IMG/VR virus record: IMGVR_UViG_3300027714_000004
Location: 64,001-128,000 of that record
Strand: one strand, 5' to 3'
Source: a virus
Length of the DNA: 64,000 nt
Positions 44,518-63,750 of this stretch are shown piece by piece. Each line of letters opens with the position of its first letter. The first letter of the stretch is position 1. The notes under the pieces were generated by a model that was not told the origin of the DNA, searched no databases, and worked only from the letters and a program-made list of their open reading frames with translations. The translations under genes were made by a program, and so were the position numbers.

Positions 44518-44832
44518 ATGTCTAATTATGGAATGGAAATTATAAGTCCAGATAGTGACGGTAATGGTAACTCGATAGTATCGCGAGTTGTTTTCTCCGA
44601 TAGTATTAGAACCTCCAATATCCAACTACACGAGACAATATCCTTGGCCAAGAATACAAGTACATTTATCTCTTGTCTAGATGCTAACGATCCCTCTAAA
44701 ATAATAATCACCTTTGAACAGGCCCGTGGTTTTGTTATAAGTAACAAGACCCCTCTTGGGTTTACAGTAACTAATGAATACCAGTACATGAACACTCTTA
44801 CTGGTACAGTCATCGCAGTGAGAATTGGATAA
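44518..44832 (+). CDS. Small fibre-module protein (MSxYGxEI type)
   Basis: N-terminal motif shared with 57407-57781; RBS AAGGAG. Confidence 0.75.
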   Translation: MSNYGMEIISPDSDGNGNSIVSRVVFSDSIRTSNIQLHETISLAKNTSTFISCLDANDPSKIIITFEQARGFVISNKTPLGFTVTNEYQYMNTLTGTVIAVRIG

Positions 44833-47800
44833 TGTCATACGGATTAAAAATTACGGGAAACGATGATGGCGGTAACTTCACGGTTGCCGACACTGATCTA
44901 GGCATGGTCAACTTAGTAGTTACCGATGTCGGTAGAGCATCGTCCTTCAATCTTGTAGGGGGTATTCAGCCGGGCGACTATATTTACGTGAGATATCCTT
45001 CTGCGCCTGGCGGTGGAGGGTATACTCCTATACAGATGGGAGAAGGTCTATCAGCGGTTCAGATAGATAGACCTTTAATCTATAATATAGATGCTGTCTT
45101 AGTTGCGGGTTCCCCTACCTCAGACATGACCATAAACTTTAAAGGTTCCGCATGGAAGTGGCTTAATTCTCCTAATTCATATCAATCTGATACACTCTAC
45201 ACATACAATGATTTCGTAGTAGATATGGATTACTTTGTAGTCCGTAAGGCTTCTACCATCAATGCACTGGGATTGGACACCTCAGAGGATTACGGTTTCC
45301 AACTACTCAACGTAGACAGTGTATCTGGTGCTAGTGAAATCGCACTTGATTCCAGAAGTTTTACCTCTGACAAAACCTTTTACATAGAAGGGTATCTGCC
45401 CCCAGACAATAACTTCGGCGAGATAAATGGCAATTCTACCACGTTATCCTATACAGATGGTTGTTACGTCAATCTAGAATGGTCTGCCAGATCAGCGGTT
45501 CCTTTCTTTCCGTCCTTCGGAGCAGCACCCCTTCTCGGACTTTCTATCACGGATACTATGGCATATAGTATTGACGGAGATACTACTATAGTAGGTGGTG
45601 GTGGAGAACCAGAATTACGAATCTGGTCTAGTTATAATGCAATATTTGCAGCTAAACTAGGAGCGGGTATATCTTCTTCCACACCACCCAATGAGTCAGG
45701 TGGTGGTACTGTAACTCCTCCACCAACTGAACCCAACGAAATCACAGGTACAATCGACTACGTATCTGGAAACACTGTGACCGAAGGTAACACAATATCC
45801 TTTAACGCAGTAACGTCTGTATCATCCAATTACCACACTCGCGTCTTTAGACTGTCTGGGTCGGCAGGGGATGCAGGAAAAGATTTCAATACCGTAACAT
45901 CTCCATTCACCGGAACCTCCCATACCGTGACGTTGAGCACATATGACACGAGCTCTGGTCAACAGACATTTAATAATATCTATAGTCAGGGTTATGTCGG
46001 AACTTACTCTAGAGACAGAGTATCTGCCTACACAAGAGAAGTAGCAGCTTCGTATAGTAGAACCTTCGTTGGCAACTTCATTGGTAACTATTCAGGTACT
46101 ACTTCTTACCAGACCGACTTCTCTAGTAACTATAATCAAACGGTTGATTACACAAGAACTATTTCGCGTACCGAATCATTCATCGGTAACTATTCACGTT
46201 CGAGATTAGCGGTATCCACACGAACTTCTATATACTCTAGAAATATATCGTATACCGGAAACTTCCTAGGGAACTATGCAGGAGCATACTCAAGAACTCG
46301 TACAAAAACTTCCTCCTACACCAGAGATTTTTCTAGGACGGACTCATATACGGGTAATTATGAAGCTTCGCGGGTGCTTTATGAAGGTGGTGATGAAGTT
46401 ACCTTCCCACTATTCTTCGTTTCATATTACTCTAGAGTCAGACCCTCTTCATTTGCGGGTACCTACACACGAAATAGAGCAGACAGTAATTCATACACAG
46501 GGTACTATAGTAGAACCAGTACCAGAACAGTACCTGCTTCATATCTAGGAACGTACAGTAGAAACAGAGTAAGTACATATGCTAGGTCTAGAGCAACCAG
46601 TGGTTCCCAAGTATTGACCTTCAATGGTACATACACTCGATACTTTTCTGGTGCTTACAGTCGGACAGGTTACTATTCAGGAGCATACACAGCATTTTAT
46701 ACCGGAAACTTTGGGCAGACAGCAGATTACTCTAGATTTCGTCAAGTATCCTTTACAGGAAACTATAGCAGGAACGTTACATCTACCAATACCTTCTCTC
46801 GTAGTTTCACTAATACTACCCCGTACTCGTCGGCGTATAGTCGTACGACCACGGGTACCATTACGGATCCAGCGTCCACGAGGAACGTTAATTACTCTAG
46901 GTCTTTCGTAGGGGACTATGCGAACACTGGTACCTTTATGGGTAACTTTGTAGGAAACTACCTTAGGTATTTTACAAGAAACGTAGGTTACGCTAGAACC
47001 ACCGTTGGATATCAGTATCTCCCAACTCCTAGAACCTACTGGTACGAGTATCCACATGCAGAACAGATTGACGAGCCAGGGGGCCCTCCCGCTATTCTCC
47101 TACGACATATCGTAGTTTATGTCGGTAACGTAATTGTTGCAACAGGAATATCTTCGAGCCTTAATCCCACAACATATCTTTTATCGGGTGGTGTATATTA
47201 CCATAAAGGTTCTCTTAATTATTCTTCAGCAGGTGATCAGACTTACTTTAGTATTGGTCAGAGTCTTGATGGTGGGCCACCGTCAGCGGGAACATCGTAT
47301 TACACTAGAACCGGATACTATGCAAGTTCTTACGCGGGTGCCTATGCAAGAACATTTGCTGGGACTGGTACCTTTTCAAGATCTCGTCTAATGGAATATT
47401 CAAGAGTCGTTCCATATACTTTGGTTCGTACTAGTACCTATACTGGGTATTACTCTAGAAGTTATACCTCAGGCGCAGTGAGAACTGCTTCATATACTGC
47501 GTACTATGCTGGCACAGCATCATATACTAGAAACCGTGCGGCTACCTACGGAGGAAACTACACGGGTGCTGCTGTAAGTTACATATATGATCCCGAATCT
47601 GGACAGTCAAGAGTTGTATCTCCATTCTCATCACGTCAACGTATTGCTTACTATTCGGGTACCTACACAAGAGGTCTTAGTTATAGCAGAAATAGACCAA
47701 TGTCCTATGCAGGAGCATACACCAGAACTAGCGCATACTCTGCAAGTTACGTAGGGAACTACAGCAGAACTTTATCGGATAGTTATTCGGGGACATATGC

Positions 47801-48878
47801 CAATACCTATATCGGTAACTATACTGGAGCATACTCTAGAACTATCACTCAAGGTACGACATTCACAGGTAACTATGCGGGTACAGGAACACAGAACTTC
47901 ACGGGTACATATTCTAGATGGACTACGAATAGCTTCACCCGAACCCGATTACATACTATTACCAGAACCAGTTCATACTCAAGAGGCCTTTCCTTCATAG
48001 GGGAGTATACCGGAATGTATACGCGGGATAGTGTGATAACTAGACCATCTACTCTGGACTACAATGGAATTGCAATATTCACAGAGAATTTTGCGGGAGA
48101 ATACACCAGAAATAGTGGTAGTGGATTTACGAAACTCTCTACGTATTCTAGAACAAATAGTTTTCTGGGTAATTATATCGGAAACTTTTCTAGAACAGAA
48201 ACTGGTACTCCAGAGTCTACTAGAAACAGAACCAGTTCATACACAAGGACTGGGGGAGCTAGTTACGAGAGAAATATAGTAGACAGTTATGTGGGTACAT
48301 ACATTGGTAATTACACGGGCGCATCAACTCGCACACCATCCAATACTTCTGAGATTGGTTGGCAGGGAGAGAGGTTCGTTATCGAATTGAGAAGAGGTTC
48401 GGACGCTACTTCTATAGCTGCGGCAAGAGGGACTATACCAGCATTGGATTCAAAGGAGTTTACTCTTATTGATAATGATACTGGTCTATTTGTAGCTATG
48501 TCTCCTCAAGTGTTGCACCATACCGCAACCCAACACGAACTTGTATTTGACTTCTTCACCGAAGGTACGTCAGTGGTTCCTGCTAGAATTTATAGAGGTT
48601 CCTCAATACTAGTTAACTCGTTCAACTTGGTATCTAATCAAAGAAATTCGGTGATGGTGAATGAAGTCCCACCGGAAGGTTCTAATTACATTTACACTCT
48701 GAAGGTGTTCGATGGTTCGAGTTGGGTATTGTCGTCATACTATCAGGTAACTAAAGTAACCGATACTGACTATACACCCCCAACAGATGGCGGTGGCGCC
48801 CCGACTCCGACCTATACTGCTCCCACTCCTGCTTATTATACGGGTGGTACACCCTCACCACCAAGCAACGAAAATTAA
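44832..48878 (+). CDS. Large virion fibre protein with Y/F-x-R/G-x tetrad repeat region
   Basis: MSYGLKI N-terminus; ~780-aa repeat region with a central ~95-aa non-repeat insert. Confidence 0.85.
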   Translation: MSYGLKITGNDDGGNFTVADTDLGMVNLVVTDVGRASSFNLVGGIQPGDYIYVRYPSAPGGGGYTPIQMGEGLSAVQIDRPLIYNIDAVLVAGSPTSDMTINFKGSAWKWLNSPNSYQSDTLYTYNDFVVDMDYFVVRKASTINALGLDTSEDYGFQLLNVDSVSGASEIALDSRSFTSDKTFYIEGYLPPDNNFGEINGNSTTLSYTDGCYVNLEWSARSAVPFFPSFGAAPLLGLSITDTMAYSIDGDTTIVGGGGEPELRIWSSYNAIFAAKLGAGISSSTPPNESGGGTVTPPPTEPNEITGTIDYVSGNTVTEGNTISFNAVTSVSSNYHTRVFRLSGSAGDAGKDFNTVTSPFTGTSHTVTLSTYDTSSGQQTFNNIYSQGYVGTYSRDRVSAYTREVAASYSRTFVGNFIGNYSGTTSYQTDFSSNYNQTVDYTRTISRTESFIGNYSRSRLAVSTRTSIYSRNISYTGNFLGNYAGAYSRTRTKTSSYTRDFSRTDSYTGNYEASRVLYEGGDEVTFPLFFVSYYSRVRPSSFAGTYTRNRADSNSYTGYYSRTSTRTVPASYLGTYSRNRVSTYARSRATSGSQVLTFNGTYTRYFSGAYSRTGYYSGAYTAFYTGNFGQTADYSRFRQVSFTGNYSRNVTSTNTFSRSFTNTTPYSSAYSRTTTGTITDPASTRNVNYSRSFVGDYANTGTFMGNFVGNYLRYFTRNVGYARTTVGYQYLPTPRTYWYEYPHAEQIDEPGGPPAILLRHIVVYVGNVIVATGISSSLNPTTYLLSGGVYYHKGSLNYSSAGDQTYFSIGQSLDGGPPSAGTSYYTRTGYYASSYAGAYARTFAGTGTFSRSRLMEYSRVVPYTLVRTSTYTGYYSRSYTSGAVRTASYTAYYAGTASYTRNRAATYGGNYTGAAVSYIYDPESGQSRVVSPFSSRQRIAYYSGTYTRGLSYSRNRPMSYAGAYTRTSAYSASYVGNYSRTLSDSYSGTYANTYIGNYTGAYSRTITQGTTFTGNYAGTGTQNFTGTYSRWTTNSFTRTRLHTITRTSSYSRGLSFIGEYTGMYTRDSVITRPSTLDYNGIAIFTENFAGEYTRNSGSGFTKLSTYSRTNSFLGNYIGNFSRTETGTPESTRNRTSSYTRTGGASYERNIVDSYVGTYIGNYTGASTRTPSNTSEIGWQGERFVIELRRGSDATSIAAARGTIPALDSKEFTLIDNDTGLFVAMSPQVLHHTATQHELVFDFFTEGTSVVPARIYRGSSILVNSFNLVSNQRNSVMVNEVPPEGSNYIYTLKVFDGSSWVLSSYYQVTKVTDTDYTPPTDGGGAPTPTYTAPTPAYYTGGTPSPPSNEN

Positions 48879-56096: not shown

Positions 56097-56336
56097 ATGA
56101 ATAATCATCAAAGAGTAGAAGGTCATAACAACTTAGTACGGGATAGGCGAACTGGTGTTGTCCTAAATAACAATAAGACTGAAATCGAAAACGCAAGAAA
56201 ACTAAGTATAATACAACAAGAAAAAGAGGATCATATCAACACTCTTACTAATGAGATAGACTCACTAAGAACAGATATGGATCAAATAAAAGAATTGCTT
56301 TTTCGTTTAGTAAAGGATAAAGAAGATGGCAGATAA
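56097..56336 (+). CDS. Conserved small coiled-coil protein that follows VrlC-like genes
   Basis: VEGHNNLVRD..TG.VLN; heptad C-terminus. Confidence 0.8.
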   Translation: MNNHQRVEGHNNLVRDRRTGVVLNNNKTEIENARKLSIIQQEKEDHINTLTNEIDSLRTDMDQIKELLFRLVKDKEDGR

Positions 56337-57405
56337 TATACAAGTAGTACATCTCGCAGATAACATCAATGCGGCATTCGATAAGATCAATGAGAACTTT
56401 GAATTGGTTGCGACAGGTGCCTTTGGTGGGGGTGGTGATAGTAGTAGTACAGATTACTCCGATCTAGAAGCTGGCATTCTAGCAAACGCAACTGCGATCA
56501 CTGGGATAGGGACAAGTATCACCAATATAGGTGGGAACATTAGTATTGTTTCCTCTCAGTACACTGACTTGAGTGCTACCGTTGGCGGTCTGGTATTTGG
56601 TGGAATTGATTCCGGTGTTCTTACTAGTGCGATTGCTACTGCCAACACTCAACTCGTTGCACGAATAGATGCCACTGAGAACAGTATCTCTGTATTGTCT
56701 GGAGACTACACTAACCTAAATGTGTCATTGAATCAAATTCTCTCGGATGGTATTACCCTTACTCCAGAACAGGTAACCTCAGCCGTTGGTGGTGCTCTAG
56801 AAGCACTGACTACACGTATAAATCTAGATAGTGATAGGCTAGTGATCGAAGGACAAAAGATTGTAAATCTTACCGCAGAAGTATTTACTGTTGATGCTGG
56901 TGGTAATACAGTTAACGCAATTAGTAATGCTACTAATCTTCTGCAACAGTCTATCAACATTGTCAACGGAAGAATATATGCAGCAGACGCAATAATGAAG
57001 ACCGAATTAGAAACTAAGATCGGTACTGACATTGCGACTGCGTCTTCAACTCTACAGACTCAGATCAATAACTTGGGTGGAACAACTGCAACATGGAATC
57101 TTGACCTAGTTGCTGGTACAGAGTCCAACCCACACATTGCTGGTATAAAGTTCGGTAATGACGGTGCAACCGCAGATTTCGCGTTGACCGCAGACACCTT
57201 CCGAATTGTAAATGCTACTAATAATGAGATTCAACCATTCACTGTTTCTGGTAATGAAGTCCAATTGTCAAATGCAACAGTTACGGGAAATCTAAATATA
57301 GGTTCAAACCTCAGTGGTGCGCATACCGAAATTAAAGATGATGTCATCAAGGTGTTTGACCCAACTGGACAACTACGAGTTAAACTAGGCAACTTGGCCG
57401 GATAA
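56326..57405 (+). CDS. Second tail fibre-like protein (paralogue of 42308-44500)
   Basis: KINENFE anchor; coiled coil; AG..F...AD.F...PF.V; C-terminal LRVKLGNL. Confidence 0.75.
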   Translation: MADNIQVVHLADNINAAFDKINENFELVATGAFGGGGDSSSTDYSDLEAGILANATAITGIGTSITNIGGNISIVSSQYTDLSATVGGLVFGGIDSGVLTSAIATANTQLVARIDATENSISVLSGDYTNLNVSLNQILSDGITLTPEQVTSAVGGALEALTTRINLDSDRLVIEGQKIVNLTAEVFTVDAGGNTVNAISNATNLLQQSINIVNGRIYAADAIMKTELETKIGTDIATASSTLQTQINNLGGTTATWNLDLVAGTESNPHIAGIKFGNDGATADFALTADTFRIVNATNNEIQPFTVSGNEVQLSNATVTGNLNIGSNLSGAHTEIKDDVIKVFDPTGQLRVKLGNLAG

Positions 57406-57406
57406 T

Positions 57407-57781
57407 ATGAGTTATGGATTAGAAATACGCAATTCGTCAGGGACTGTTATAGTCAACGAATTTAGCAATCTAGGGTCTCTTGTGGCACATGGTGTCATTT
57501 CAGCAGACAATGCTAAATACGATTCCGCGGCTGCCGCTAATCCTAATTGGGCATTAAATCCTATCTGGTTTGCTCCTGCTTGGTTCGCTTATGGTGAACG
57601 TGCTGCTATAACTATAAGTGTTCCTGATTATATAAATGATGCTCAGTATCATGCAATCGTCTCAGGCCCGTCATCTTTATTTGTTTCGGGAGCAGAAGTT
57701 ATAAGTACGTCCACTGGTAGTATAACCGTTAAAAGAAATGATAAATTTGATGCATATTTTTATATTGTGAGAAAGGGATGA
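57407..57781 (+). CDS. Small fibre-module protein (MSYGLEI type)
   Basis: N-terminal motif shared with 44518-44832. Confidence 0.75.
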   Translation: MSYGLEIRNSSGTVIVNEFSNLGSLVAHGVISADNAKYDSAAAANPNWALNPIWFAPAWFAYGERAAITISVPDYINDAQYHAIVSGPSSLFVSGAEVISTSTGSITVKRNDKFDAYFYIVRKG

Positions 57782-58500
57782 GTTACGGACTACAGATAAA
57801 AAACGGATCCAATAATATTATTATTGACGAAGCCTTTAAGAATTTTCAGATTGCTGCGATTGGTACATCAGCAGCCGGTACAGCTTTGCCAATCACAGGC
57901 AACCTTATGACGGAGGGTGGTTTGGTCTTTGCTAAACCAAGTGGAGTTAACACAAGCGATTCCGCTGGATGGCATATCGGTATAGAGATGAACTTTTACT
58001 CTGCTCACACAGGACAGTTCGATGTGAACCTGACCAGTACGTATTCTGGTGGTGTTGATAGATCAACCTCTGCAATAACATCCCCCAATCTTGGTAAGCA
58101 AGCTCCTAATATAGATTGGATATACATAAAACCTTCGGCAACCCCAACAAGTACGGAATATGGATTGGAAGTATATGCCGCAGATGGCACTATGTCTTTC
58201 TCATCTGAAGTTAGTGGTATGTTCAATATAATTTCAACTGCGGTAAGTAACCCCAGTACTAAGTCCGGTAACCACTTTTTCACTCCTTGGTACGCAGGAT
58301 CTGGACGAGACGTGTTTGATTGTTACGTATGTATCGGGAACTTCCTACACTTCCATATCTCCTCGACGACTTGGGGATGGGCGCATACTGCGAAGTGGCA
58401 GTCATCCGGTAATAAGTTGACATTGATTCAACCAGACTGGGTGTATCCTAATAACACAGTCCCTGCAATGTATCTCATGGGACAACTGTCGGGTAACTAA
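57778..58500 (+). CDS. Fibre-module protein (MSYGLQI...YGLEVY)
   Basis: Corresponds to the N-terminal ~280 aa of 44832-48878. Confidence 0.75.
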   Translation: MSYGLQIKNGSNNIIIDEAFKNFQIAAIGTSAAGTALPITGNLMTEGGLVFAKPSGVNTSDSAGWHIGIEMNFYSAHTGQFDVNLTSTYSGGVDRSTSAITSPNLGKQAPNIDWIYIKPSATPTSTEYGLEVYAADGTMSFSSEVSGMFNIISTAVSNPSTKSGNHFFTPWYAGSGRDVFDCYVCIGNFLHFHISSTTWGWAHTAKWQSSGNKLTLIQPDWVYPNNTVPAMYLMGQLSGN

Positions 58501-58536
58501 TTCGACAAATTAATTTAGTAAAGGAACGTTTTAAAA

Positions 58537-58992
58537 ATGAGTAAAATATTAGCATACACGCATAAAGATACTGGAGAAGTTACTTCGGTAGTTACAATGT
58601 CTCTAGACGGTGGTTGTCCGGAAGATGGTGAAAGTGTAGGTGATTCTATTGTAAGAGACATTACCGACATTGCTCAAGATGATTGGGCTTCGTACTCTGA
58701 AACTAAGTACTGGGATAATGGTTGGGTTACCCGTGGAGAGAAACCTTCGTCAAATCATATATGGCAAGACGGTGAATGGGTATTCAATGTAGTACACTTC
58801 TCTTTTCAAGTTCGTATAAGAAGACTAGAACTTCTAAATCAAAGTGACTGGACTCAAATGCCAGACAGTCCTCTATCCGAAGAGATGAAGACTGCATGGG
58901 GAGAGTATCGACAAGAACTCCGTGATATGACCATACTTCTTTCGGATATAGTCTCCGAAGAAGAACTTGATTGGCCTGCAACCCCAGAATAA
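58537..58992 (+). CDS. Tail fibre assembly chaperone-like protein
   Basis: SDWTQMPDSPL...W.EYRQELRD...WP. Confidence 0.85.
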   Translation: MSKILAYTHKDTGEVTSVVTMSLDGGCPEDGESVGDSIVRDITDIAQDDWASYSETKYWDNGWVTRGEKPSSNHIWQDGEWVFNVVHFSFQVRIRRLELLNQSDWTQMPDSPLSEEMKTAWGEYRQELRDMTILLSDIVSEEELDWPATPE

Positions 58993-59111: not shown

Positions 59112-61751
59112 GTGTCCGCATCCAGTATACCCCTAAAAATTAAAAATAGCGCAGGTGACCTACAGGAATTCAGCCCCGAAGAAGAAATGTTTCTTGCGGT
59201 AAAATTGGGAGAGTCTTTATCAGAGTCTTCTGCTGGTGATATCGGAGACATTAGTCTAACGGGTGATGTTAATATAGGATCGTTTGTAGACACGTACTAC
59301 AACGAAGTTACGGGTACTCACCCAGCATCAAACATTACAGGAACTACCGTTACTACTACATTAAAACAGGTAGGTGGTTCTGCGTCAGAGACTGGATCAG
59401 ATTTCATAAGACCTATAGGTTATTATCAAAGCAGTTCAAATGCTGGATTCTACGATATGGTAGATCTAGATTTGAATAATTTAACAACTCGTGCACTGAG
59501 AACTGTTGAGACATTAGGTCTTCAGGGTACATTCGAATTATCATCAACTACGCCAGGCACTGATTGGGTAAAACATGTAGATAACGTGTTTACAGATACC
59601 ATCGGTGACGGTACCTCGGTAGTATACCATATTTGGAAACGTGTGACACTAGCAACTCCACCAGCGGGTCTAGCCACCGTACGACCAATGGCAACAACTT
59701 ATGACGGATCTACCTTTGATGGGTTTAAAGAAATGTCAGACGATCAGATCAAGGCTACCCTTGGTCAACGTGCTAAAACTCTTCGAGCAACAGTAGGATC
59801 TATTGGTTCTTATCAGTTGCGTTCATCCGCTCAAGGAGCTCCCACTTCAGCAGGTACTTGGGATGCACGTGGTTCTGCTACTAATACTCAACGAACCCTT
59901 GTTGACGCCGACTATTCTCGTACTCGTAATTCTGCATATACTCGCACTAGAGTTTCTGCATATTCACGTGATCGACAGTCTACATATACCCTAGACCGCA
60001 CAGAATCATTCTCAAGGAATTTTACTGGTGACTTCGCTGGTACATATACTAGAGACTTCGCTGGTACATATACTAGCGATTTTACTGGAGTATATTCTAG
60101 AACTCGTCCTTCAACATATAGTCGTAGTAGACTAGAGGCATTCACTGGTTATTTTGCGGGTACTTATAATCGTGCACGAGTATCTACCTATACTAGTGAT
60201 AGGATAGAAGGGTTCTCTTCAGCATATTCACGTGCACGAGTATCTACCTATACACGTAGTCGTATTACCGACTTCGCTGGAAACTTCGTTGCAGGATATT
60301 CTAGAGGATTTGCTTCAGATTATTCGCGAACCTTTATCGGTGCATATTCATCTTCTTACTTTGGTGATTTTGTAGGAAACTATGCTCGTACTTCTACTCT
60401 AGTTTCCACACGCACTCGGTACTCTACATACACACGAAATAGTATAACTAACACTCCCGTCTCTTATATGGGTAATTTCGTAGGGTATTATACTGGAGAT
60501 TTCGCAAGTTCATACTCAAGAACTACATCGGGCACATATGCTCGGACGTTAGCATACTCTCGTACACTGTATTATACTGTTAGTTTCGTAGGAAACTTTT
60601 CTCGCGCAGCTGCGGGGTATTACACCGGAAACTATGCTCGTACACGAGATATGTCATATTGGGCATATTACGCTCGTAATATTGCTTACACAGGGTATTA
60701 CTCTCGCAGCGCCAGTCAAGGTGCATCATATTTCAGAAACATGGTGTCTACTCGTTTCCGATATGGTACTACCAGAAACGCTCAGGCATTTCCCAGCGAC
60801 ACCTCTCTCGACGGTAATTTAATTATACCTTGGTATTTTGCGGGGGACTTTGCAACTGCATTTGAATATGTTGCATACTACCCAGGCGGCACCTACACAC
60901 GTTCAAGACTTGTCTCTAACACTTATGCCAGAGTCATCCCCCTCTACTACGTGGGAAATTATAGTAGGACTGTAGGCGTTAACTACGTAGGTAACTATGC
61001 GAGAACGCGTGTAGCAAGCAGTCAAGGTACTGGTTACTATGCGACCACCTCAAACTACTCTTCTTCATACACGGGATATTACTCTAGAAACCAGACTCTT
61101 ACTTATGCTGGTGCTTATGCACGAGCTCGTGCGAGTGTTGTACAAGATACATTTGTAGGTGACTACGCAAGAACATTTGCAGGTGCCTTCTCTAGTCAAT
61201 TTGTTGGCGAATATACCACAACATCTACAAGAACTCGATTAGCTTCGTTTGTCAGAAATAGAGTGCAGGCGTATACGAACACACGATCTTCGACATATTC
61301 TCGTGATCGTGTTGCTAATTTTGCAGGAGAGTTTACTGGTAACTACACAACAACATTCTCTGGAGACTATTCTCGAACCTTTGCTGGTAACTTTGTAGGT
61401 AACTATACCACAACCTTTATTGGTGACTTTGCAGGAGCATATGCTAATACCTTTACAGGAGAATTTGTTGGAGACTTCACTACTAATTATGTAGGCAACT
61501 ATAGTCGTGTACGTGTATCTGCGTACGCTCGACTACGTACCTCAACCTATACTGGCCCTTACACAAGTGACCGCGCATCGACGTACATCGGAAATTTCAC
61601 TTCGGACTACACGCGTGAATTTGTTGGAAACTATTCGAGAGATTTTGCTGGTCAATATTCACGTGCTTACCTCGGAAACTATACTGGTACAACTATTAGT
61701 GATGTGATCTATACCCCAGAAACATATACCTTATACGTAAGGATTGCATAA
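59112..61751 (+). CDS. Virion protein with mirror-symmetric tetrad repeat region (predicted giant beta-hairpin)
   Basis: N-terminal 267-aa domain, 593-aa repeat region, short C-terminal strand; late promoter upstream. Confidence 0.85.
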   Translation: MSASSIPLKIKNSAGDLQEFSPEEEMFLAVKLGESLSESSAGDIGDISLTGDVNIGSFVDTYYNEVTGTHPASNITGTTVTTTLKQVGGSASETGSDFIRPIGYYQSSSNAGFYDMVDLDLNNLTTRALRTVETLGLQGTFELSSTTPGTDWVKHVDNVFTDTIGDGTSVVYHIWKRVTLATPPAGLATVRPMATTYDGSTFDGFKEMSDDQIKATLGQRAKTLRATVGSIGSYQLRSSAQGAPTSAGTWDARGSATNTQRTLVDADYSRTRNSAYTRTRVSAYSRDRQSTYTLDRTESFSRNFTGDFAGTYTRDFAGTYTSDFTGVYSRTRPSTYSRSRLEAFTGYFAGTYNRARVSTYTSDRIEGFSSAYSRARVSTYTRSRITDFAGNFVAGYSRGFASDYSRTFIGAYSSSYFGDFVGNYARTSTLVSTRTRYSTYTRNSITNTPVSYMGNFVGYYTGDFASSYSRTTSGTYARTLAYSRTLYYTVSFVGNFSRAAAGYYTGNYARTRDMSYWAYYARNIAYTGYYSRSASQGASYFRNMVSTRFRYGTTRNAQAFPSDTSLDGNLIIPWYFAGDFATAFEYVAYYPGGTYTRSRLVSNTYARVIPLYYVGNYSRTVGVNYVGNYARTRVASSQGTGYYATTSNYSSSYTGYYSRNQTLTYAGAYARARASVVQDTFVGDYARTFAGAFSSQFVGEYTTTSTRTRLASFVRNRVQAYTNTRSSTYSRDRVANFAGEFTGNYTTTFSGDYSRTFAGNFVGNYTTTFIGDFAGAYANTFTGEFVGDFTTNYVGNYSRVRVSAYARLRTSTYTGPYTSDRASTYIGNFTSDYTREFVGNYSRDFAGQYSRAYLGNYTGTTISDVIYTPETYTLYVRIA

Positions 61752-61860: not shown

Positions 61861-62322
61861 ATGAGTCGTAAGCAGTGGATGGATAATGCATTCTGGGAAA
61901 CGGATGAAAAGAAAGAACTGAACTGTATCCTAGAACTTGAAGATGATGTTGGTCGTGTAACACGTCAACAGATGCTTTTACACCGAACTAACAAAGATGG
62001 TAGTGATAACGATCTTTTCAATGAAGTTATTGAATCGGTAGGTGAAGCATCTATTGATAAGGAAACAACTGATCGAGTTATCCGTAAAACTGCCGAAGTT
62101 GAAGAAGAGAAGTTGCGAGACGATGAGCATCAAAAAGCACGTAAGCTCGAAAAACTTTTTAATTATAAGATGGAAGCTTTCGAAGTGGATGAGATTAAAC
62201 TCTCCAAAAACCGAAAGTTAAAGGCTAAGTTGCGCCGTGCTAAGTCAAAGATTGAAGTCGATCTATACTCAATCATGATTCTACAAGAGCAACTAGAGGC
62301 CACGGAAGATGGAAAAAAGTAA
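61861..62322 (+). CDS. Hypothetical protein
   Basis: 153-aa ORF, RBS GGAG; LFNYKMEAFEVDEIK.S..RKLK.KLRRAK. Confidence 0.8.
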   Translation: MSRKQWMDNAFWETDEKKELNCILELEDDVGRVTRQQMLLHRTNKDGSDNDLFNEVIESVGEASIDKETTDRVIRKTAEVEEEKLRDDEHQKARKLEKLFNYKMEAFEVDEIKLSKNRKLKAKLRRAKSKIEVDLYSIMILQEQLEATEDGKK

Positions 62323-63046
62323 AGGATTTCTAATAGTTGCGTCTAAGAAACGTAACTTCTACTTATACGCTATTAATCTTGCAGAGTCTCTTAGGGATTA
62401 CTATGATCCTGAAGATGAATGTAAAATTTGTTTAGTGACAGAGGAACAGTTCCTAGACGACCGTGGTAGAGACGTTGCGGACGATATCATCTTTTGTGAT
62501 GACCATTATCGCGCTAAGTTATGGGGAATGTCTCAGTCTCCATATGACGTGACAATGTATATTGATGCCGACATGGAATGTGAACACGAAGATATTATCA
62601 AAGTATGGGATGAGATGAAAGACCATGATTTGGTATTCACTGCTCTCACTGATGACCGTGATTATATTTACGCGGAACGGGATTTCTCCACACCAGAAGG
62701 TATGTCGAAATTTACTTTGTGCGGTGGTGTATGTTTGTATGATATGTCTAAACCAATAGTCCGTGAGTTCATGGATGATTGGTGGGACTTAACATATCGA
62801 CAGATGAACAATACTTGGTGGCCCAAGGGTTATATAGAAAGTCTCAAAGCTTGGGATCAGTTCTCACTTTGGTGGTTGACCGAGAAAGAAGACAAATATA
62901 AAGATCTCAAGATCGGTATCTTTGATGACGACTTGAGGTGGAACTATTATAACGCTCTGAACTGGGCGATCACAAAACCGGAGAACGGGCCAGTGATTCT
63001 GCGTCACTTCTCTGCGGGTTTAAATAAGGATACTCCAATAGTATGA
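62309..63046 (+). CDS. Glycosyltransferase, GT-A fold
   Basis: RAKL...SPYDVTMYIDADM, GGVCLY, WDQFSL and WN motifs. Confidence 0.8.
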   Translation: MEKSKGFLIVASKKRNFYLYAINLAESLRDYYDPEDECKICLVTEEQFLDDRGRDVADDIIFCDDHYRAKLWGMSQSPYDVTMYIDADMECEHEDIIKVWDEMKDHDLVFTALTDDRDYIYAERDFSTPEGMSKFTLCGGVCLYDMSKPIVREFMDDWWDLTYRQMNNTWWPKGYIESLKAWDQFSLWWLTEKEDKYKDLKIGIFDDDLRWNYYNALNWAITKPENGPVILRHFSAGLNKDTPIV

Positions 63047-63750
63047 TACAGGTAAACGACCAATATCTCAAACATGTCGAGGTTAATAACCCTGAACTAC
63101 TTGAGATTCTAGAACAGTACTCCAAGTTACATACCACAGAAGGTTTTGAAGAAAACTGTCACTTGAATTCTGCTCAACATATTCGACAACGCGCATACTA
63201 TGTGGGCGAAGATCATAAGAATGAAATTGTTGGTAAGGGAAACAAACACGAAGGGTTTCCGGACGAACTAGTTGGATACAACTTCAAACTTTCTGAGAAA
63301 GCGCATAAGATGTTTGCACCGGATGCAGATCCAGTTTTCAAACGTGATATGACTCTACATCTCCGTGACCTAAACGATAAGATGATGAACTTCTTGTCCG
63401 TTAAACACAATGCACTTGCAGCAGTATATCCGCCTGGCGGATTCATCTCGTGGCACAACAATGCAAATGCACCTGGCTTTAACTTAATCTTCTCCTACTC
63501 AGAAGACGGTTCTGGTTACTTCGAATACATCCACCCTGAGACTAAAGAAGTCATTCGTTGTCAAGATGAATCGGGTAAGTGGACTTGTAAGGCAGCGTAC
63601 TTCGGTCACTACGGTGAAGAAGATAAGGTTATGTACCATGCTGCGTCTACAGAAGACTGGCGTTGTACTGTATCATATGTCTTTGATCGAACAGAAGCGT
63701 CTATAGACTTCCGTGAAATGGTCGTGACAGATATTGAATCTGCGGAATAG
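63043..63750 (+). CDS. 2OG-Fe(II) oxygenase-like (double-stranded beta-helix) protein
   Basis: YPPGGFISWHNN...YHAA....R; HxN in place of HxD. Confidence 0.65.
   Translation: MIQVNDQYLKHVEVNNPELLEILEQYSKLHTTEGFEENCHLNSAQHIRQRAYYVGEDHKNEIVGKGNKHEGFPDELVGYNFKLSEKAHKMFAPDADPVFKRDMTLHLRDLNDKMMNFLSVKHNALAAVYPPGGFISWHNNANAPGFNLIFSYSEDGSGYFEYIHPETKEVIRCQDESGKWTCKAAYFGHYGEEDKVMYHAASTEDWRCTVSYVFDRTEASIDFREMVVTDIESAE

Follow-up and report, generated by a model that had tools for sequence, protein, structure and literature searches.

Mirror-complementary arms in a marine T4-like myovirus protein, a probable fold-back beta-ribbon fibre

An 879-residue protein from an uncultured marine T4-like myovirus (IMG/VR record IMGVR_UViG_3300027714_000004) is very probably a fibre built as a fold-back beta-ribbon, in which residue i faces residue 1125-i. 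Its gene lies in the window analysed here, a stretch of 64,000 nucleotides (positions 64,001 to 128,000 of that record), and its parts are listed in Table 1. A reading made from the sequence alone had proposed a single long antiparallel fold-back inserted in an N-terminal domain that is completed by the last ~20 residues, and this proposal is supported. Two of the three checks set beforehand, namely shuffles and the register and indels of homologues, came out in its favour, while the third, structure prediction, places the base ribbon in register and leaves the arms at low confidence. The coordinates given for the repeat (residues 268-860, nt 59913-61691) and for its central interruption (residues 552-575, nt 60765-60836) agree with ours.

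Table 1. Coordinates in the window of the proposed fibre gene, its parts and the neighbouring chaperone gene
Feature	Position (nt)	Strand	Basis
Probable fold-back fibre gene, 879 aa, GTG start, stop included	59112..61751	+	ORF list and translation
Knob, residues 1-249, predicted mixed alpha/beta	59112..59858	+	AlphaFold2 pLDDT mostly 80-97; conserved
Residues 250-267, predicted first base-ribbon strand, exits knob	59859..59912	+	AlphaFold2 strand E250-286
Arm 1, residues 268-551, proposed outgoing four-residue repeats	59913..60764	+	tetrad parse; pairing with arm 2 at i+j=1125
Proposed turn/distal tip, residues 552-575, non-repeat	60765..60836	+	register centre 562.5 falls within
Arm 2, residues 576-857, proposed returning strand, mirror-complementary to arm 1	60837..61682	+	register, shuffles, alignment
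Residues 858-879, predicted second base strand and C-terminal motif TYTLYVR, proposed to complete knob	61683..61748	+	AlphaFold2 strand E839-877
Tail-fibre assembly chaperone gene, upstream context	58537..58992	+	Pfam PF16778 Phage_tail_APC; phrog_4912

Facing pairs in the two arms

The four-residue period of the arms is plain. Among the 108 in-phase tetrads parsed, position 1 is Tyr (50), Phe (36) or Arg (22), position 3 is chiefly Gly (39), Arg (25) or Ser (21), and positions 2 and 4 are mostly T/A/V/S and T/D/N/A, respectively. The arms (566 residues) contain zero His, zero Lys and zero Cys, and they carry 63 Arg against 29 Asp plus Glu as well as ~117 aromatic residues; this Arg excess and aromatic load count, on grounds of packing, against the fold-back model.

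The two arms are mirror-complementary. With c denoting the sum i+j of facing positions, at c=1125 the 22 tetrad-initial Arg face Phe (16) or Tyr (6), and the 37 position-3 Arg face Gly (22), Ser (10), Ala (3), Gln (1) and Asn (1). By hand, every Arg-initiated tetrad had been found to face an aromatic-x-small-x tetrad, which holds throughout, with the count corrected by program from 23 to 22 and the facing third residues from 20 Gly, 2 Ser and 1 Ala to 19, 2 and 1. The Arg/Gly code proposed at the time is likewise present, as only one part of a fuller face rule comprising Y-Y, R-G, R-F and S-R. Arg/Gly pairs number 24 at c=1125 and 19 at c=1127 (43 in total), against 16 at the next best of all registers, and at neither of these two sums does Arg face Arg, in line with the earlier observation that no R tetrad faces another. 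When blocks of 4 or 8 residues were permuted within each arm with the phase kept, the maximum of RG(c)+RG(c+2) was 27 +/- 1.8 and at most 37, and none of the 2000 shuffles reached 43.

The pairing extends beyond Arg and Gly. In a gapped local alignment arm 1 scores 53.7 against reversed arm 2, compared with 15.2 for the parallel orientation and 16.3 +/- 3.4 for tetrad shuffles, and the two-residue stutters that interrupt the repeat are indeed mirrored across the arms. A ladder of aromatic residues (Y476, Y482, F496 and Y508) faces Y649, Y643, Y629 and Y617, all at c=1125, successive members being 6, 14 and 12 residues apart in either arm, and the pairs Y551/W574 and F549/F576 close the turn. 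Over the ~40 residues nearest the tip, both arms are irregular and score weakly for pairing.

An origin of this mirror in antisense coding or a DNA palindrome is ruled out: neither Arg and Gly nor Tyr and Tyr have codons that are reverse complements of each other, and at the DNA level there is no palindrome, only a single 21-nt inverted repeat (76%).

Register and conservation in the homologues

One search returned 194 homologues at E<=1e-3, ranging from ~500 to >3000 residues. For 42 of them (L 657-1214) a register was predicted solely from the positions equivalent to Y268 and T871, and in 23 this anchor-predicted register ranks first among the 206-754 registers of the same parity available in each; the 42 homologues are related, so that these 23 cases cannot be counted as independent. 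In 13 homologues the anchor register is the exact Arg/Gly optimum even before the search is limited to the repeat region. Arg/Gly maxima near c=L-5, seen in some homologues, are noise-level and inherited within subfamilies, and they vanish within the repeat region. The four closest relatives (P0002-P0005) failed the anchor test because their C-terminal linker is a few residues longer, which alters the parity; in an unconstrained search the top mirror segment lies 1-3 from the prediction in P0003-P0005 and is offset by 77 in P0002.

The pairing preferences recur outside the protein itself. In 20 other homologues the facing pairs enriched over expectation (observed/expected) are G-R (377/191), Y-Y (272/141), F-R (213/91), R-S (222/137) and N-T (279/190), and those depleted are R-R (49/113), R-Y (61/149) and G-G (47/89). 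A pair matrix learnt from these 20 homologues, with the 879-aa protein excluded, picks c=1125 in that protein with a score of 45.9 (mean -31, sd 17), and when the arms are scanned from base to tip, 12 of 16 windows have their best local register at this sum.

The register is held at the anchor prediction despite the varied lengths, and length changes must therefore be balanced between the arms. Compensating indels, which had been suggested as a check, are seen at mirror positions in two close homologue pairs: between P0031 and P0034 (91% identical), extra B-type units (defined below) in arm 1 are matched by an additional A-type unit at the mirrored place in arm 2, and P0008/P0013 show similar mirror-placed indels. 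Mapping of BLAST HSPs against the closest relatives gave no readable mirrored recombination breakpoints because of the repeats. In the relative from phage C48C1 (3347 aa), five mirror segments are strictly nested. Indels in one arm only had been named as grounds for refutation, and this relative does contain one-arm insertions; they do not refute the model, because they are unpaired non-repeat stretches after each of which mirror pairing resumes in nested order.

Conservation is mirrored as well and falls from base to tip, from 39-55% in the knob through 30-33% in the proximal and 20-23% in the middle parts of the arms to 13-16% in the distal arms and 9% at the tip. Residues 1-249 have a mean identity to the query of 39% at 97% column occupancy, and W250 and G254 are invariant in the homologue alignment. 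Residues 858-879 are the most conserved in the protein (55%), with the C-terminal TYTLYVR motif present in most homologues, while residues 552-575 (9% identity) are the least conserved and are swapped in P0005 and P0057 for globular domains of ~100-140 aa. The hallmarks of the family are all found in our protein, with the N-terminal PLKLK knob and the C-terminal TYTLYVR flanking mirror-complementary tetrad arms.

Proposed fold and its alternatives

AlphaFold2 is confident only for the knob and the first ~20-35 residues of the ribbon. It predicts a first base strand (E250-286) with pLDDT >90 up to ~residue 270, paired confidently with E839-877, in which the last 20 residues have pLDDT 77-96, and the strand-end sums of 1125-1127 match the register expected by the sequence-only reading; this register is taken from DSSP strand ends and not from a contact map. 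Residues 277-848 have pLDDT <50. The same holds for the homologue P0030 (579 aa), where the predicted strands 238-259/554-577 give sums of 813-815, the Arg/Gly optimum is 813, and residues 257-556 have pLDDT <50. AlphaFold2 and ESMFold both leave the arms unmodelled, which therefore represent a blind spot of current predictors. A three-copy prediction of residues 452-673, run without controls, returned no answer, and the partner's own fold is uncertain.

We propose that residues 1-267 together with the last ~20 residues would form one conserved proximal knob, from which the chain would run outward as a beta-strand ~300 residues long, built of four-residue repeats, turn at a tip of 22-24 residues (552-575) and return antiparallel along itself. 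Tetrad positions 1 and 3 would make up one face of the ribbon, on which eight-residue units of two kinds, A (Y-x-R-x-R-x-S-x) and B (Y-x-R-x-F-x-G-x), would meet across the strands, A opposite B giving the pairs Y-Y, R-G, R-F and S-R; A opposite A would set Arg on Arg, which is not seen. On the second face a small or beta-branched residue (T/A/V/S) would be paired with T/D/N/A. Since A and B units follow each other in irregular order, one register is far better than those slipped by eight residues, and we infer that this order acts as a register lock in folding. Several ribbons, most likely three, would then associate, by analogy with the six-stranded needle of gp37, into a rod of perhaps 60-95 nm; the 95 nm proposed from the sequence is an upper bound only, and scaling from the gp37 stem gives ~60 nm. 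The knob may dock on the baseplate or on another fibre, with the variable turn or tip presumably contacting the host.

The arms could instead pair antiparallel between chains, in a domain-swapped and fully extended dimer or polymer where the C-terminal strand completes a neighbour's knob and the 'tip' sits in the middle of the rod. The sequence complementarity and the predicted base ribbon would be satisfied equally by this trans pairing, and domain swapping is frequent in fibrous phage proteins. We nevertheless consider it unlikely, given that each arm, joined to the other by the covalent turn, has its closest partner by a wide margin in its own chain, and that in the analogous gp37 D11 every chain forms the fold-back on its own (PMC9603124). 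The inter-arm segment also behaves as a free distal end, being least conserved and varying between a loop of 24 aa and inserted globular domains that measure 100-140 aa, and all of the C48C1 mirror segments nest around a single 73-aa centre.

Less probable still is a beta-solenoid or triple beta-helix with local contacts only, in which the mirror would reflect a symmetric distribution of repeat subtypes and no physical pairing. Phage beta-helical shafts such as those of T4 gp5 and gp12 typically contain short Gly/aromatic repeats, and the failure of AlphaFold2 to model a hairpin body would fit such a shaft, but a symmetric distribution would set like against like, whereas here unlike units face each other, R-R, G-G and R-Y being depleted. 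The register is, moreover, exact to the residue across the mirrored stutters and across homologues with arms of ~150-470 residues, the arms aligned in parallel do no better than shuffled ones, and a period of four residues is too short for a solenoid turn. That the mirror is a chance by-product of periodic composition, many registers and a flexible hand parse was tested and is rejected as next to impossible: any in-phase register of a four-residue repeat does yield many aromatic and Arg/Gly coincidences (10-16 R/G pairs at other odd registers), but the phase-preserving shuffles never match the observed value, the register was predicted in advance from the anchors in 23 of 42 homologues, and the register of the 879-aa protein emerges again from a matrix learnt on other proteins.

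Comparison with known fibres and genomic setting

The statement in the sequence-only reading that no described phage fibre is built like the fold-back model was too strong, T4 gp37 D10-D11 having the same topology (PMC9603124). In the accounts that PMC9603124 and PMC9659904 give of the work of Bartual et al. 2010 on the tip of the long tail fibre, D10-D11 (residues 811-1026) is its needle, and in the former each chain leaves the knob, reaches the tip and returns, leaving both termini in the knob. The likeness to our model comprises an elongated domain inserted in a proximal knob made of flanking chain segments, antiparallel beta strands in an out-and-back chain with both ends in that knob, and a fibre protein of a T4-type myovirus with a fibre chaperone gene nearby; in gp37 the receptor-binding part is at the turn. 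There is, however, no sequence or profile similarity between gp37 and the 879-aa protein, and gp37 D11 has ~138 residues in a needle of ~15-20 nm, whereas the arms here have ~285-300 residues each, about four to five times longer than those of gp37, and exceed 1000 in relatives. In contrast to gp37, the register here is set by the explicit code of A/B complementarity carried in a four/eight-residue repeat, and while gp37 is an established trimer (a six-stranded needle), a trimer of our protein is only proposed. According to Bartual et al. 2010, the gp37 core is reportedly held by iron bound to the histidines of His-x-His motifs; the arms here are without His. The topology has a precedent in the gp37 tip; the length is undescribed, and the explicit pairing code sets the protein apart from gp37.

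In the triple beta-helix of T4 gp5 and gp12 and the triple beta-spiral of adenovirus and reovirus, three parallel chains make local, within-repeat contacts. These shafts resemble our protein in forming a long thin beta rod from short Gly/small/aromatic repeats in a host-recognition fibre, but here the chain would return on itself, with complementarity that is long-range and antiparallel. Merkel and Regan 1998 are said to have described an 'aromatic rescue of glycine' in antiparallel cross-strand pairs. The facing of Gly or Ser by a large planar side chain, and of aromatic by aromatic, is common to those preferences and to the ribbon; in globular proteins they are a statistical tendency, whereas here they are systematic over ~280 consecutive pairs, with Arg as the main partner of Gly.

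A wider reading, which we judge evenly balanced between right and wrong, is that such proteins form a class of fibres in which a digital code of two letters specifies the long-range fold, matched units in both arms tune the length and a ladder of Arg, aromatic residues and Gly replaces a metal or hydrophobic core, giving marine T4-like phages whiskers of tens to hundreds of nm in which a residue spans about twice the length that it does in classical trimeric fibres. With A units obliged to face B units, the fold would be readable from sequence like an RNA stem, with the one-arm insertions of the C48C1 relative as its bulges and with exchangeable tips. If the fold-back model is right, a thin rigid rod can be made from protein in a very simple way that is easily extended, its register fixed by a complementarity rule that is legible in the sequence and in principle open to rewriting there. 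The model would also explain a large unannotated marine phage family (194 matches), probably in host recognition, and would offer a programmable beta-ribbon from nature to structural biology and protein design.

Databases assign the 879-aa protein to no family in Pfam or PHROGs. A profile of the 42 homologues found no PDB chain at E<=1, Foldseek found no PDB match at E<=1e-3, and matches in the ESM Atlas are to unnamed viral clusters only. The best match in a wide VIA-align search (Z 6.4) is a MACPF C-terminal/MABP-like beta domain over 118 residues; no fold is assigned from it, because this Z lies within the range that the tool calls common. Megablast against phages gave no match, tblastn matched phage C48C1 and a weak stretch of an Enterococcus phage and nothing else, and a literature search found no description of the family or of phage C48C1.

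The designation as a fibre rests on gene context and architecture. Traits of fibres in general that are found here are a place in a tail/baseplate module, a conserved proximal and a variable distal part, and exchanged tips. Genes upstream match phrog_219 and phrog_438 (baseplate wedge subunits), tail proteins, Phage_Tail_Tip and the fibre chaperone, whose match to PF16778 scores 53.6 bits (cut-off 26.6) and which may serve fibre genes further upstream and not the 879-aa protein. The gene is located in a T4-like baseplate/fibre module with the same gene order in phage C48C1, where the chaperone gene occupies the same position and the homologue, too, opens with GTG and shares the N-terminus.

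Mirror pairing between the two arms

The arms of the 879-aa fold-back protein are built from tetrads, of which 108 in-phase copies were counted; position 1 is Y, F or R (50, 36 and 22), position 2 is T, A, V or S, position 3 is G, R or S (39, 25 and 21), and position 4 is T, D, N or A. The limits that the sequence-only reading gave for the repeats and for the non-repeat stretch at their center proved exact on re-mapping. The 566 arm residues (window 59913–61682) include 63 Arg against 29 Asp plus Glu and, by composition count, no Lys, His, or Cys, a composition that would give a highly basic rod.

Features on the window discussed in the text
Feature	Window position	Strand	Remarks
P0122, second fold-back repeat protein	44832–48878	+	1348 aa; mirror segments; end domains differ from those of the 879-aa protein
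Phage_Tail_Tip-like protein, 240-aa protein, and Phage_tail_APC chaperone	56326–58992	+	upstream genes; 359 aa for the first; second is phrog_4062, function unknown
Fold-back protein ORF	59112–61751	+	879 aa, GTG start
Repeat-bearing residues 268–860	59913–61691	+
Non-repeat stretch, residues 552–575	60765–60836	+	24 residues
Three downstream genes	61861–63750	+	153, 245, and 235 aa; other phages show synteny of these with the fold-back gene

Arg/Gly pairs were counted, with no hand parsing, at every possible antiparallel register c = i + j, the sum of the residue numbers that face each other. The two best registers are c = 1125 (24 pairs) and c = 1127 (19), followed by 16 pairs at the next best, and these two are the sole strong registers from which Arg/Arg pairs are absent. 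When blocks of 4 or 8 residues were permuted inside each arm, preserving period and composition, the maximum of RG(c) + RG(c+2) was 27 ± 1.8, and the observed value of 43 was reached by 0 of 2000 shuffles, so that the Arg/Gly matching, first seen by hand, is not reproduced by shuffled tetrads. Programmatic parsing gave 22 Arg-initiated tetrads, all opposite aromatic-x-small-x tetrads (19 G, 2 S, 1 A); the pairing seen in the hand count (23; 20, 2, and 1) therefore stands and its numbers were off by one tetrad. Position-3 Arg lies opposite G, S, or A in 35 of 37 cases. Each 2-residue stutter in one arm has its match in the other, as had been claimed, because the aromatic ladder keeps to c = 1125 across the stutters. 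Gapped local alignment of arm 1 with reversed arm 2 scored 53.7, compared with 15.2 for the parallel arrangement and 16.3 ± 3.4 for shuffles. The mirror pairing is thereby confirmed. A palindrome was considered as its cause, and none is present at the DNA level.

Conservation of the register and the pairing code

The search found 194 homologues of ~490–1500 aa, none of them annotated; conserved among them are the first ~265 residues and a TYTLYVR motif at the C-terminus. A chain that folds back requires, at any length, a register equal to two conserved anchor positions added together. Computed from the alignment alone, this predicted register falls exactly on the Arg/Gly optimum of 13 homologues out of 42, and within the repeat region it is top-ranked among 206–754 same-parity registers in 23 of the 42 (L 657–1214). 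The sole reason why the four closest relatives fail the anchor test is a difference of a few residues in their C-terminal linker; in an unconstrained search the top mirror segment is 1–3 from the predicted register in three of them (P0003–P0005) and 77 off in the homologue P0002.

A pair table built from 20 homologues other than the query is enriched in cross-strand G-R (377 observed/191 expected), Y-Y (272/141), F-R (213/91), R-S (222/137), and N-T (279/190) and depleted in R-R (49/113), R-Y (61/149), and G-G (47/89). The code that it gives is one in which unit A (YxRxRxSx) lies opposite unit B (YxRxFxGx); B can lie opposite B as well, and A opposite A would clash. When this matrix, learnt without the query, is applied to it, c = 1125 comes out best overall (45.9; mean –31, sd 17) and also in 12 of the 16 local windows between base and tip. 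The runners-up are usually 1117 and 1133, each slipped by one octad; they score about half as much as the correct register, which alone lacks Arg/Arg. In a pair of 91%-identical homologues (P0031/P0034) the sole difference is two indels: arm 1 differs by B-type units and arm 2, at the mirror site, by an A-type unit. The homologues P0008/P0013 are a comparable case. The sequences thus show that the arms complement each other in a single antiparallel register and that this register is kept through large changes in length.

A proposed fold-back ribbon and its likeness to T4 gp37

AF2, run on the query with 42 homologues, modelled residues 1–270 and the last ~30 confidently. Query strands 250–286 and 839–877 have end sums of 1125–1127, the sequence-derived register, and strands 238–259 and 554–577 of the 579-aa homologue P0030 have end sums of 813–815 against an Arg/Gly optimum of 813. 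These registers are indirect evidence since they were taken from DSSP strand ends rather than a contact map. In both models the arms are at pLDDT <50 and the ribbon body is not seen there. As modelled, the base of the ribbon is shown to leave the conserved knob (residues 1–267 plus the last ~20), which the C-terminus completes; fold and sequence searches of the knob against solved structures gave no convincing match. Our main interpretation, a long antiparallel fold-back from an N-terminal domain completed by the C-terminus, as initially put forward, is supported by the register kept in homologues and by the in-register AF2 base strands.

We propose that the ribbon spans the full ~300 residues, that the order of A and B units would serve as a register lock, that ribbons associate, probably as a trimer, and that the tip would contact the host. 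The sequence-only reading counted no described phage fibre as built in this way; as a claim that the design is wholly unprecedented, this is too strong. The T4 gp37 D10–D11 needle, 20 nm long with D11 inserted into the D10 knob, has chains that each reach the tip and then turn back (PMC9603124) and is six-stranded and antiparallel (PMC9659904), a topology that the fold-back protein would share. The fold-back protein lies outside the gp37 family, with which it has no homology, and lacks histidine for metal sites; its arms are far longer, and gp37 has no counterpart of its repeat code. Literature searches found no paper describing the fold-back family. As D11 places 138 residues over roughly 15 nm (PMC9603124), scaling would give a rod of ~60 nm, and the ~95 nm proposed earlier holds as an upper limit at 0.33 nm per residue.

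Genomic setting and related proteins

The window belongs to a 145-kb IMG/VR virus record. Upstream of the fold-back gene lie genes for T4-type baseplate wedge and tail proteins, for a Phage_Tail_Tip protein, and for a chaperone of tail-fibre assembly. The gp6-like wedge protein shares 49% identity with its phage C48C1 counterpart and ~32% with its counterparts in Synechococcus myoviruses and Pelagibacter phage HTVC008M. Conservation of the fold-back protein drops symmetrically from knob (39–55%) to proximal arms (30–33%) to tip (9%), and in some homologues the tip is replaced by a globular domain of 100–140 residues. A conserved attachment end with a variable distal end is the pattern expected of a host-recognition fibre. 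The chaperone may serve the upstream 359-aa and 240-aa genes instead of the fold-back protein, since the usual gene order puts a chaperone after its fibre gene. The downstream genes are candidates for fibre modification. For the 245-aa and 235-aa proteins, identity to their counterparts at locus L004 is 66% and 50%, although the fibre proteins there are just ~33% identical; L004 has an additional 2OG-Fe(II) oxygenase gene between the two, and C48C1 carries genes of equal sizes to all three. The 245-aa protein has a sub-threshold GT2 match alone (E 0.004, 17.6 bits, cut-off 23.3), and the 235-aa protein has no Pfam match.

Among GenBank phages, the sole relative is the 3347-aa ‘hypothetical protein’ of C48C1 (L010:612–10655, OQ984149.1 CDS0201) with N- and C-termini as in the query. 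Its five mirror segments are strictly nested about a 73-residue center, and four unpaired insertions of ~160–375 residues occur in the returning arm only. It reads as a hairpin with bulges, and the insertions may decorate the fibre as domains along its length.

P0122, whose gene lies amid baseplate wedge genes and which has no Pfam or PHROG family, has a non-repeat middle of ~90 aa between tetrad repeats related to those of the query, a connection also made by the own-genome search. Its mirror segments are nested (380–500/1165–1045, 531–585/1029–975, and 687–723/871–835), with an antiparallel gapped score of 18.0 against 9.0 ± 1.1 for shuffles (reached by 0 of 100). Its arms are alike in composition, with 2 Lys and 1 His in 692 residues; Arg is strongly selected over Lys in the arms of both proteins. 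On a metagenomic contig (L002:3074–11948) an 876-aa homologue lies directly between 969-aa and 1091-aa genes, and at L004 a 574-aa gene follows a 708-aa homologue; these neighbors may be tandem paralogues, that is, several fold-back fibres per phage.
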